From a virus (Duplodnaviria; Heunggongvirae; Uroviricota; Caudoviricetes), in the IMG/VR virus record IMGVR_UViG_2778261540_000005, positions 1-20,443 of that record: DNA of 20,443 bases; one strand, written 5' to 3'. The position numbers were made by a program. Shown here one piece after another: positions 12,001 to 15,000 of this stretch. How positions within the stretch are numbered: position 1 is the first letter of the stretch; each line of letters opens with the position of its first letter.

Positions 12001-15000
12001 AGAGACAACGTGCAATCGATAACCAACATCCTTTACGTGATTTCATGGAGTTGAGATTAAAAGGTGTTTTGGTCGATTTCGGGTCTATTCCGTTAGATAT
12101 TCTATCTGTAATTTCAGGTAATCTCGCATCCCTTGTACAGAAAGCAGTTTACCGACTTGGATCTGGGAAAGATTCTAGTCGTGTGCCGATTGATGTTAAA
12201 AAATCATTAGACATGAGATTGGCAGACTTGCGTCCAGGTTCGACGAAGTTAGGTGTTACTTTTTCTACTGGTTCTTGCGAGCTCATCGAAACAGTATCCA
12301 GTCATGCTGTTAAGGAGATTTTTGCACTACTCTCATCCATTGATGAAGAAACATTCACGGCTAAAATTGCCGAAATTGGTTCGCAATCAACAGCTAACCT
12401 AAAAAACATCATAAATGAGTGCGAAAAATATAGTCTTAACTTTGATCTTACTTGGATTGGACCTTTAAGTGATGGTACCAGACAAGTGTCAATTTCTTCA
12501 GAAGATATAAAAAAACTGAATGCTCGCTTAGCTTTAACGAAGGTCATTCAGCTACCGGATGAGCATATATCAGGCGAACTTGCTATTTTATCCATGTACG
12601 GGAAATTGGAGATTGCAAGCGAGCTTGGAAAAATAAAGGCTTCTTATCCGATTGATATGTTAGGAGAAATTCAAAGTAAATATAAAGTTGGTGAACGAAT
12701 ATCGCTCGTAGTAAGCGTTTCTGAGATTCACAATGAAAGATTAGGAACATCACGACGTAACTACATGGTTAAAAAAATCGAATAGTGATGCTACCCGGCC
12801 ACCGTGCCGGGTTTTCTTTTGCCTCCCCCTCATCACACAAACCGTTCGAAAAACCACCATAACCCCCGCTTCAGTTATCGCTATGCGATGCAAGTCACAA
12901 AATAAATCCATCTTAAATACAACCAGTTATATCTAAAACAACCAATAAAACAACTTTTGTTGTTGACGATAAAACAACTATAGTTTTAAATGAATTCATC
13001 GCAACAACACAACGATACGGCAATCACCTGATTCACCGTTGCGATGACCGCTTAGATCCGCAGCTTGAATTTCAGCAGGCTCCGGGGAGTGCGAGGGGTG
13101 AAGCGGACGCGTGAACGTCGGTGTGACCAGCTGAAATCAACTCAACACTTCATACCTCAGTCGCTTCAACGAGGCGACTTAGTTATGACAACCGGCGGCC
13201 ATCCACCGCCTGAATACGCGCAGAAGTCTCTATATGTTCAGCAGCCCAGCTTACGGGCAGAAGTCTCTATATGTTCAGCAGCCCAGCTTACGGGCAGGAG
13301 TTTTTATGGTTCATCAACATTACGGAACGCAGACCGTTAATCGAGGTGCGGTCATGCCAGGAATGCTGGTCAAACACAAAGATGGTACCTGGACTGCATC
13401 AGCTAATTTACGCGGACGGCTTTATCTGCATCGCGGCATCGAGCGCACTTATACCCGTGATTTGCTCGTGGAAGTTTTTCTCGACGGACGCGGTAACGGC
13501 CTGAATCACTAACCCCCTTTCCTGTTTTCCTAATCAGCCTGGCATTTCCCGGGCAATAGTTTCACAGCCATTTTCAGGAGTTCAGCCATGAACGCTTATT
13601 ACATTCAGGATCGTCTTGAGGCTCAGAGCTGGGTGCGTCACTACCAGCAGATCGCCCGTGAAGAGAAAGAGGCAGAACTGGCAGACGACCTGGAAAAGGG
13701 TCTGCCCCAGCATTTGTTTGAATCGCTCTGCATCGATCATTTGCAACGTCACGGGGCCAGCAAAAAAGCTATTACCCGTGCGTTTGATGACGATGTTGAG
13801 TTTCAGGAGCGCATGGCAGAACACATCCGGTACATGGTTGAAACCATTGCTCACCACCAGGTTGATATTGATTCAGAGGTATAAAACGGATGAGTACAGC
13901 ACTCGCAACGCTGGCTGGGAAGCTGGCTGAACGTGTCGGCATGGATTCTGTCGACCCACAGGAACTGATCACCACTCTTCGCCAGACAGCATTTAAAGGC
14001 GATGCCAGCGATGCGCAGTTCATCGCATTGCTGATCGTCGCCAACCAATACGGCCTTAATCCGTGGACGAAAGAAATTTACGCCTTCCCTGATAAGCAGA
14101 ACGGCATCGTTCCGGTGGTGGGCGTTGATGGCTGGTCCCGCATCATCAACGAAAACCAGCAGTTTGACGGCATGGACTTTGAACAGGACAACGAATCCTG
14201 CACATGCCGGATTTACCGCAAAGACCGCAATCATCCGATCTGCGTTACCGAGTGGATGGATGAATGCCGCCGCGAACCATTCAAAACCCGCGAAGGCAGA
14301 GAAATCACGGGGCCGTGGCAGTCGCATCCCAAACGGATGTTACGGCATAAAGCCATGATTCAGTGTGCCCGTCTCGCCTTCGGATTTGCTGGTATCTATG
14401 ACAAGGATGAAGCCGAGCGCATTGTCGAAAATACCGCATACACTGCAGAACGTCAGCCGGAACGCGACATCACTCCGGTTAACGATGAAACCATGCAGGA
14501 GATTAACACTCTGCTGATCGCCCTGGATAAAACATGGGATGACGACTTATTGCCGCTCTGTTCCCAGATATTTCGCCGCGACATTCGCGCATCGTCAGAA
14601 CTGACACAGGCCGAAGCAGTGAAAGCTCTTGGATTCCTGAAACAGAAAGCCACTGAGCAGAAGGTGGCAGCATGACACCGGACATTATACTGCAGCGTAC
14701 CGGGATCGACGTGAGAGCTGTCGAACAGGGAGATGATGCGTGGCACAAATTACGACTCGGCGTCATCACCGCTTCAGAAGTTCACAATGTGATAGCAAAA
14801 CCCCGCTCCGGAAAAAAGTGGCCTGACATGAAAATGTCCTACTTCCACACCCTGCTGGCTGAGATTTGCACCGGTGTGGCTCCGGAAGTTAATGCTAAGG
14901 CGCTGGCCTGGGGAAAACAGTACGAGAACGACGCCAGAACCCTGTTTGAATTCACTTCCGGCGTGAATGTTACTGAATCCCCGATCATCTATCGCGACGA

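Follow-up and report, generated by a model that had tools for sequence, protein, structure and literature searches.

In lambda, P22 and phage 21 the N/nut system occupies the first few hundred bases 3' of the left operator and promoter (OL/pL), after which come kil, gam, bet and exo, and in the N-less lambdoid phages HK022 and HK639 a conserved structured leader, put, begins at the 5' end of the pL transcript. Lambdoid left operons also contain terminator clusters, known as tL1A/tL1B in phi80 and 'terminator x2' in HK639, with a stem-loop preceding cIII in lambda. In the Rac prophage, the gene for the toxic FtsZ inhibitor KilR lies behind a long untranslated leader, in company with YdaS/YdaT-type genes at the cro and cII positions. 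Silencing of kilR by Rho/NusG has been documented for Rac only. The same is true of the small RNA KilS (PMC8175672). Here, we analyse the corresponding region of a lambdoid prophage belonging to a family of E. coli phages, present in IMG/VR record IMGVR_UViG_2778261540_000005 (the window, a stretch of 20,443 nucleotides (nt) to which all positions refer), and in particular the leader of ~310 nt that separates OL/pL from kil. The window resembles the N/nut phages in the position of this leader ahead of kil-gam-bet-exo and differs from them in having no N protein; it resembles Rac in its KilR-type kil behind a long untranslated leader and in its YdaS/YdaT-type genes, although homology to the Rac kilR leader or to KilS was rejected, there being no sequence similarity. 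We consider it likely that this is the OL/pL region of a common lambda-like family in which kil is the first gene of the pL operon and N is absent by design, that a conserved RNA motif in the leader controls kil after transcription initiation, and that a 37-bp tandem repeat next to kil is a private duplication.

The absence of N from this interval, already suggested in an initial annotation of the window, was confirmed by profile searches. When the stop-to-stop frames of 12786-13345 were compared with PHROG and Pfam models, no frame matched N or Nun, even at E <= 10; lambda N, used as a positive control, matched phrog_271 (9e-24) and PF11438 (2.5e-26). No N-like protein was found among the other open reading frames (ORFs) of the window, no boxA, even with up to 3 mismatches, was found in 12990-13310, where a nutL would lie, and there was no boxB-like hairpin common to the pL and pR leaders. 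Put, whose action in HK022 requires the zinc-binding domain of the RNA polymerase beta-prime subunit (PMC9378689), was sought with a covariance model (R1) trained on HK022 putL and putR and on putL of HK639, S9-5 and CobraSix. All five training sites are recovered by this model with scores of 62-103 bits. Its best score in the window and in three relatives was 10 bits, inside the O gene, and none of these weak matches lies near pL or pR; we therefore rejected a put-like RNA for the leader. In the right operon there was likewise no R1 match, nor was there a leader inverted repeat of 15 nt or longer in 3000-10500.

This arrangement is common. With a 535-bp leader query, the leader was found in ~2,229 of 5,426 complete E. 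coli genomes (~41%) and in 16 deposited phage genomes, and the complete phages that carry it (IdasGreatGrand, 4A7, Perceval and the PhiR phages) have listed propagation hosts. In the complete IdasGreatGrand genome the sole annotated antiterminator is Q-like. Because the same arrangement is seen in complete phage genomes and in 2,229 E. coli genomes, the absence of N is a trait of this common lambda-like E. coli phage family and not a sign of prophage decay, and the earlier suggestion that N may have been lost in a defective prophage is not supported. Other genera are alike in this respect: in Citrobacter, Kluyvera, Silvania and Enterobacter prophages, kil lies directly behind a pL-like promoter and the leader is short and structured. 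Those leaders (L098-L104) have a 5' stem-loop (AUCGACAAC...GUUGUC) and a conserved hairpin, CGCCAGCCUGGCG, followed by ACAAGGGCAAAG; some carry an additional long hairpin of ~110 nt, and part of their sequence resembles the 5'-untranslated region (5'-UTR) of kil in phi80 and HK225. With a family that has neither N nor put present in about four in ten complete E. coli genomes, the question of how the early programme runs becomes concrete and can be tested with available isolates.

The leader of the window contains a motif of 61 nt that folds into two hairpins. Hairpin 1 (13150-13188) is built on a base helix, UCAUA/UAUGA, with an upper stem, and both a GAGG and the AUG at 13185 are enclosed within it; hairpin 2 (13194-13210) has the sequence GGCGG-CCAUCCA-CCGCC. 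The hairpin AGTCGC-N9-GCGACT (13159-13179), which had been picked out in the initial annotation, is present and forms the apical part of hairpin 1. The segment 13150-13215 folds at -25.6 kcal/mol (z = -5.7), and none of 200 shuffles was as stable. The motif consists of UCAUACC, a covarying stem with GAG on its 3' side, GUUAUGA, a spacer and GGCGGCCAUCCACCGCC. A pattern scan of IMG/VR returned at least 120 further stretches; there are at least 56 distinct variants, 37 of which make up alignment A7. RNAalifold applied to these 37 variants again gave two hairpins, with 98.1% of cells paired as against 32-55% when the partners were slid, seven pairs with compensatory changes, and 88 double-change cells as against 6-21 in the slid controls; in 500 shuffles the observed covariation score was never reached. 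No variation is seen in the UCAUA/UAUGA helix, in a GAG within the 3' strand of the upper stem or anywhere in hairpin 2, loop CCAUCCA included; the upper stem of hairpin 1 otherwise varies freely with compensation. Folding and covariation thus bear out the part of the initial annotation that proposed an RNA element in the leader, as a structured, covarying motif; an antiterminator RNA of the HK022 type, according to the covariance model, it does not contain. A conserved peptide starting at AUG13185 was also considered and rejected, since the distance from this AUG to hairpin 2 varies among phages by 3-7 nt, in non-multiples of three, and so keeps no frame.

A covariance model of the motif (R2), trained on alignment A7 with the window's own sequence included, matches 13150-13210 at 89.6 bits (E 1.5e-22). 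The same stretch recurs in phi80, HK225, HK639, the P22-like Salmonella phage S9-5, the Enterobacter phages CobraSix and BHUENT6 and the Klebsiella phage KO-TP1, and R2 also detects hairpin 1 in HK022 and lambda. In all seven instances outside the family that were found by BLAST, the motif lies directly 3' of an intrinsic terminator (a GC stem and a T run), and the terminator clusters of phi80, HK639 and lambda mentioned above are homologous to 13150-13210. In relatives that contain N or put, this is the tL1/tL2 position, ahead of cIII/kil. In the window family, ...AATCAACTCAACACTT stands in place of the preceding terminator stem; in the window, moreover, no T run follows hairpin 2 and cIII is missing, so that the motif leads straight to kil, which begins 96 nt further 3'. 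Among the matches listed, a KilR-type kil lies 63-998 nt downstream in 80 of 120 motif loci. In lambda, hairpin 1 is located between a terminator-like hairpin after ea10 and the Shine-Dalgarno sequence (SD) of cIII, 7 nt upstream of Lambda_thermo (RF01804). Within lambda 33463-33521 (L086 664-722, minus strand), the homologue of hairpin 1 (33483-33521) ends in GUUAUG, and is followed by a three-codon mini-ORF (AUG UAU AAA UAA) whose stop overlaps the cIII SD (UAAGGAG), just upstream of Lambda_thermo.

A search of all 4,227 Rfam families, including Lambda_thermo, which was recovered in lambda as a control, gave no match at gathering score in the window, and only chance-level matches at E <= 10 in 12780-13600. 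The motif is therefore absent from Rfam, and its support from covariation is strong. Phages already equipped with put or an annotated N carry it too, and in the put phages HK639, S9-5 and CobraSix it is a separate element, ~1 kb 3' of putL. Being common to lambda-, phi80-, HK639- and P22-like phages, placed before cIII or kil, and adjoining the cIII thermosensor, this 61-nt covarying motif can be regarded as a good candidate for an element that controls toxic early-left genes in general.

Since the window lacks the terminator stem found ahead of the motif in other phages, pL transcripts would be expected to extend into kil-gam-bet-exo with no need of an antiterminator. Most probably, the motif exerts its effect once transcription has begun, on the toxic gene downstream: hairpin 1 would lock the GAGG...AUG start site within a stable stem, and its opening, or processing of the RNase III type, would set ribosome loading and hence the translation or Rho sensitivity of that gene. 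What a review says of lambda cIII, namely that RNase III relieves occlusion of the ribosome-binding site (PMC5371410), would fit this idea of hairpin 1.

Several points weigh against this reading. First, the motif could attenuate transcription instead of controlling translation, and a role as attenuator is equally compatible with the terminator annotations, because hairpin 2 and the preceding terminator were annotated as two terminators by the depositors of HK639, and because in phi80, where the depositors named the preceding terminator tL1A, the start of the 't-L1 signal' in record M11919 maps by coordinate arithmetic to approximately hairpin 2. Second, the start of pL transcription, read-through into kil and any processing of the leader are all inferred from sequence. 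Third, strong intrinsic terminators are still present, both in the pR operon and further along the pL operon, and some antitermination may still be needed. In addition, a function for 13032-13148 is conceivable in spite of its diversity within the family, and the duplication may not be neutral, since it adds a second copy of AGAAGUCUCU, a box for which pairing with the kil SD is predicted. The pR terminator, GAACCCAG...CTGGGTTTTTTATTT (7105-7126, minus strand), stands between the replication genes and nin/Q, and the terminator-like hairpins of the left operon, on the plus strand, are found at 15413-15435, 17929-17979 and 18400-18415.

Comparison of relatives shows that the leader is a mosaic of four parts (Table 1), the boundaries of which follow from the fact that relatives share only parts of it: those of a third immunity type (L040) share the leader only from 13032 on, phi80 and HK225 share only 13149-13210, and one relative (L074) shares only 13213 onward. 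In L074 (2496-2777), only the last ~95 nt of the leader and kil are present, behind unrelated genes on the opposite strand, and from this case kil and its 5'-UTR can be seen to move together as one unit. The second part, 13032-13148, is confined to this phage family. Its nucleotide diversity (0.042-0.050) is approximately the same as that of kil (0.049) and gam (0.053) at third codon positions, and neither this segment nor the repeat region has structure beyond that of shuffles (z between -0.7 and +1.3), so that 13032-13148 gives no sign of constraint as RNA.

Two short boxes of this segment, X and Y (CGCAGCTTAAATTTC and AATCAACTTAACA), are found again in the pR leader, where they flank an exact boxA (box X at 10286-10272 and box Y at 10246-10234). 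That leader (10205-10300, minus strand) is AU-rich and unstructured, and contains no boxB-like hairpin. Set beside lambda nutR, this site has an exact boxA and two boxes shared with the pL leader. The boxA site is confined to this immunity type, within which the pairing of boxes X and Y is significant by position. In relatives of immunity type B the pL leader is the same, but cro is separated from the following gene by only ~25 nt, in which these boxes and any nutR-like site are missing. Boxes X and Y were accordingly rejected as a family-wide nut-like pair, being missing from the pR leader of type B and confined to six phages of this immunity.

These observations bear on an alternative in which N was replaced in this family by a new RNA of the pL leader with protein-independent antitermination or anti-Rho activity, a functional analogue of HK022 put. 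A family that includes complete isolated phages and has neither N nor put, terminator-like sites downstream in both early operons, the exact boxA in the pR leader of this immunity type, and a leader whose conservation begins at about +1 of the predicted pL transcript, as in putL, would all be in keeping with such an RNA. We nevertheless regard it as unlikely: apart from the negative result with the put model, the pR operon has no second copy of a leader element except for the two short boxes, and boxes and boxA alike are missing in the type B relatives that share the same pL leader; the segment 13032-13148 varies like synonymous sites and folds no better than shuffles, and the part that is well conserved, the two-hairpin motif, is not restricted to phages without put or an annotated N. 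More broadly, because the family is without N and put and yet keeps terminators in both early operons, it is conceivable that it passes them in an undescribed way, either through the pL leader or the motif acting in cis as a new leader RNA, or by antitermination that relies on boxA and host factors only. The motif would then represent a new class of regulatory RNA and not the remnant of a terminator, an outcome to which we give only a small chance.

The 37-bp tandem duplication is exact, as the initial annotation had described it: 13221-13257 and 13258-13294 are identical letter for letter, and the second copy stops 1 nt ahead of the kil SD. The duplication is flanked by imperfect direct repeats of 12 nt, TACGcGCAGaAG (13215-13226) and TACGgGCAGgAG (13289-13300), which are identical at 10 of 12 positions, and the copy of this repeat at the junction is a hybrid of both flanks (TACGG + GCAGAAG). 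Its sequence thus fits slippage or unequal exchange between the 12-nt repeats; duplications that arise by slipped-strand or unequal-exchange events have the same short flanking direct repeats and hybrid junction, and the one described here does not differ from this ordinary mechanism. All 80 IMG/VR relatives, defined as contigs encoding a Kil identical to that of the window, have a single copy. Direct alignment likewise revealed one copy only in the leader of phage IdasGreatGrand, and nearly all leader matches in E. coli and phage genomes fall into two pieces separated by a 37-bp gap. When the 5,426 complete E. coli genomes were surveyed with a 44-nt query spanning the copy junction, a match was found in strain EC77 only. 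A weaker match in a second genome was rejected, as it corresponds to a single-copy leader with a point change in the SD from GGAG to GAAG. A conserved regulatory tandem repeat was rejected in turn, with the array present in none of the 80 relatives and in one of 5,426 genomes. A role of the repeat in the regulatory design thus fails the check proposed in the initial annotation, since related functional phages whose leader and kil are the same do not carry it, and the repeat is best explained as a recent private duplication, a polymorphism outside that design. In light of this, the 37-bp repeat is ordinary, and the points of lasting interest are a family without N and put and an uncurated RNA motif of lambdoid left operons.

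The coding sequence of kil runs from 13306 to 13512, its ATG lying one base ahead of the start (13307) implied by the initial annotation. The NF008465 model aligns with residues 1-68 at 63 bits (1.8e-17), a score under its curated 92-bit cut-off, and PGAP annotates the same 68-aa kil in strain EC77. Because the KilR profile and PGAP both start kil at ATG 13306, the duplication is noncoding for Kil and lies within the kil 5'-UTR, with SD and ATG intact. The 37-bp unit starts with a box, GCGCAGAAGTCTT (13218-13231), that is conserved 3' of the two-hairpin motif in most phages; for AGAAGUCUCU, at the start of the unit, pairing with the kil SD (GGAG...UUUUU) is predicted in single-copy and duplicated leaders alike. 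In single-copy relatives, moreover, the ORF that begins at the sequestered AUG13185 is in the frame of kil; the duplication shifts this frame, and the ORF ends 33 nt inside kil. Since the duplication doubles the GCGCAGAAGTCTT box and unlinks the AUG13185 frame from kil, a modest effect on Kil output is conceivable. That the duplication is adaptive, lowering Kil toxicity in this lysogen through a doubled anti-SD box and an ORF unlinked from kil, is nonetheless improbable in our judgement, in spite of the SD-weakening change from GGAG to GAAG at the same place in another strain, given that the duplication is seen only in the window and one genome and that the region folds no better than shuffles. 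The strain with the weakened SD is E. coli 2017C-4173W12 (L088), and the change may be another route to lower Kil expression.

Upstream of the motif, the TTG/GTG-initiated frame with an arginine-rich patch reported in the initial annotation is present, starting from TTG 13065 or GTG 13098 (MKRTRERRCDQLKS...) and open to 13340 in the window. The GTG is replaced by ATG in some relatives; in about one third of relatives, including phage IdasGreatGrand, a TAG (13158 C>T) ends the frame, and in others it is shifted by a 5-nt TCAAC indel. TCAAC is present in two copies in the window (13137-13146) and in three in some relatives (L017, L024, L034 and L055). The arginine-rich N-terminus, MKRTRERRCDQL..., was found by tblastn in no phage genome outside the family, and among 5.8 billion proteins the sole relative of the peptide is a 31-aa orphan. 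Judged from these comparisons, the frame is not a conserved protein. In some single-copy relatives, such as L040 (136 aa), the frame from TTG13065 is open to the kil stop; an N-Kil fusion was rejected on the grounds that many relatives have the TAG or the 5-nt indel and that the KilR profile starts at the ATG at 13306.

Could this frame be the stump of an N that was deleted in a decaying prophage? It has a good SD and, in some relatives, an ATG start, its N-terminal KRTRERR patch resembles the arginine-rich motifs of lambda and P22 N, and homology to the post-terminator motif sets in ~17 codons into the frame, the pattern expected of a deletion that began within N and removed everything up to the end of the terminator. 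We consider this very unlikely, however, because no parent N can be named, the N-terminus being unmatched outside the family both by tblastn against phages and among the 5.8 billion proteins, because the frame is broken in many relatives, and because the arrangement is common to complete phages with listed propagation hosts and to 2,229 genomes. An N-like RNA-binding antiterminator encoded by the micro-ORF or by the frame from TTG13065 to kil is the least probable of all. In its favour, the long frame is open in L040, the N-terminus is arginine-rich and there is an SD, the most frequent polymorphisms either leave the amino acid unchanged (13103 G/A) or give a better start codon (ATG for GTG), and diversity at third positions is roughly double that at the first two, over only 20 codons. 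Against it, the frame is interrupted by TAG 13158 in about a third of relatives, IdasGreatGrand among them, and by the 5-nt indel in others, the KilR family profile begins at the 13306 ATG, neither profile nor sequence relatives exist, and the pR leader of type B relatives contains no RNA site to match.

Table 1. Features of the OL/pL region, leader and kil, and the boxA of the pR leader (positions in the window)
Feature	Position	Strand	Details	Basis
Exact rrn-type boxA	10252..10264	-	CGCTCTTTAACAA; pR leader, between cro and ydaT-like gene	only exact match in window
Intrinsic terminator	12793..12812	+	ACCCGGC-loop-GCCGGGT and T run	terminator scan; conserved in relatives
OL operators	12945..12989	unassigned	direct repeats ATAAAACAACTnTnGTT at 12945-12961 and 12969-12985	repeat search
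Predicted pL	12963..12991	+	-35 TTGACG 12963-12968, 17-bp spacer, -10 TTAAAT 12986-12991	read from sequence
Leader part 1, immunity-linked 5' part	to ~13031			
Possible 5'-terminal stem-loop of pL transcript	12998..13045	+	AUCGCAAC ... GUUGCGAU	fold z = -2.06
Leader part 2, family-specific segment	13032..13148	+	box X 13059-13073, box Y 13135-13147	inverted repeats to pR leader
Arginine-rich micro-ORF	13098..13160	+	SD GGGGAG 13084-13089, GTG 13098, MKRTRERRCDQLKSTQHFIP...	ORF reading
Leader part 3, conserved two-hairpin RNA motif	13150..13210	+		alignments A5, A7; R2; folding
Upstream ORF from sequestered AUG	13185..13340	+	MTTGGHPPP...	sequence reading
Leader part 4, kil 5'-UTR	13213..13305			
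37-bp tandem duplication	13215..13301	+	period 37, 2.4 copies, 96% matches	Tandem Repeats Finder
kil	13296..13512	+	SD AGGAG 13296-13300, ATG 13306, 68-aa KilR-type FtsZ inhibitor	phrog_294 1.3e-37

On the plus strand, the order of elements around the leader is a cI-like repressor gene (10546-11301), a DUF6932 gene, a 310-aa PHROG 6603 gene, a terminator, the operator and promoter, kil, gam, bet and exo, the identities of kil (KilR type), gam, bet and exo having been confirmed; the minus strand carries cro (YdaS-like), the YdaT-like gene, O, P, nin-type genes, Q and the lysis genes. The terminator immediately upstream of OL closes the operon of cI, the DUF6932 gene and the 310-aa gene. The OL repeats match the OR region (10538-10581) as inverted repeats, with 95% identity over 19 nt, and the operator stretch differs among immunity types, which share the sequence on either side of it. 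As these operator repeats match OR and a readable promoter overlaps them, the assignment of pL is well grounded, and its transcript would be expected to start near 12998; leader conservation among relatives starts at ~12999. A consensus scan missed pL, since its -10 element has no A at position 2. The first ~60 nt of the pL transcript would be C-rich and G-poor (GC skew -0.3), and may begin with a stem-loop for which the evidence is weak, with six of 200 shuffles equally stable; its 5' arm is replaced in immunity type C.

The DUF6932 and PHROG 6603 genes (11383-12785) fill the rexA/rexB position between cI and pL, and are a candidate accessory or defence pair. In one relative (L009, 2117-3518), the 310-aa gene is split into ORFs of 221 and 63 aa. 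Finally, tandem and inverted repeats of 19-23 bp (TTTACCTGATTCGGGTAAAC...) are found at 9091-9207 within the O gene, the interior of which is the usual site of lambda-type origin iterons.

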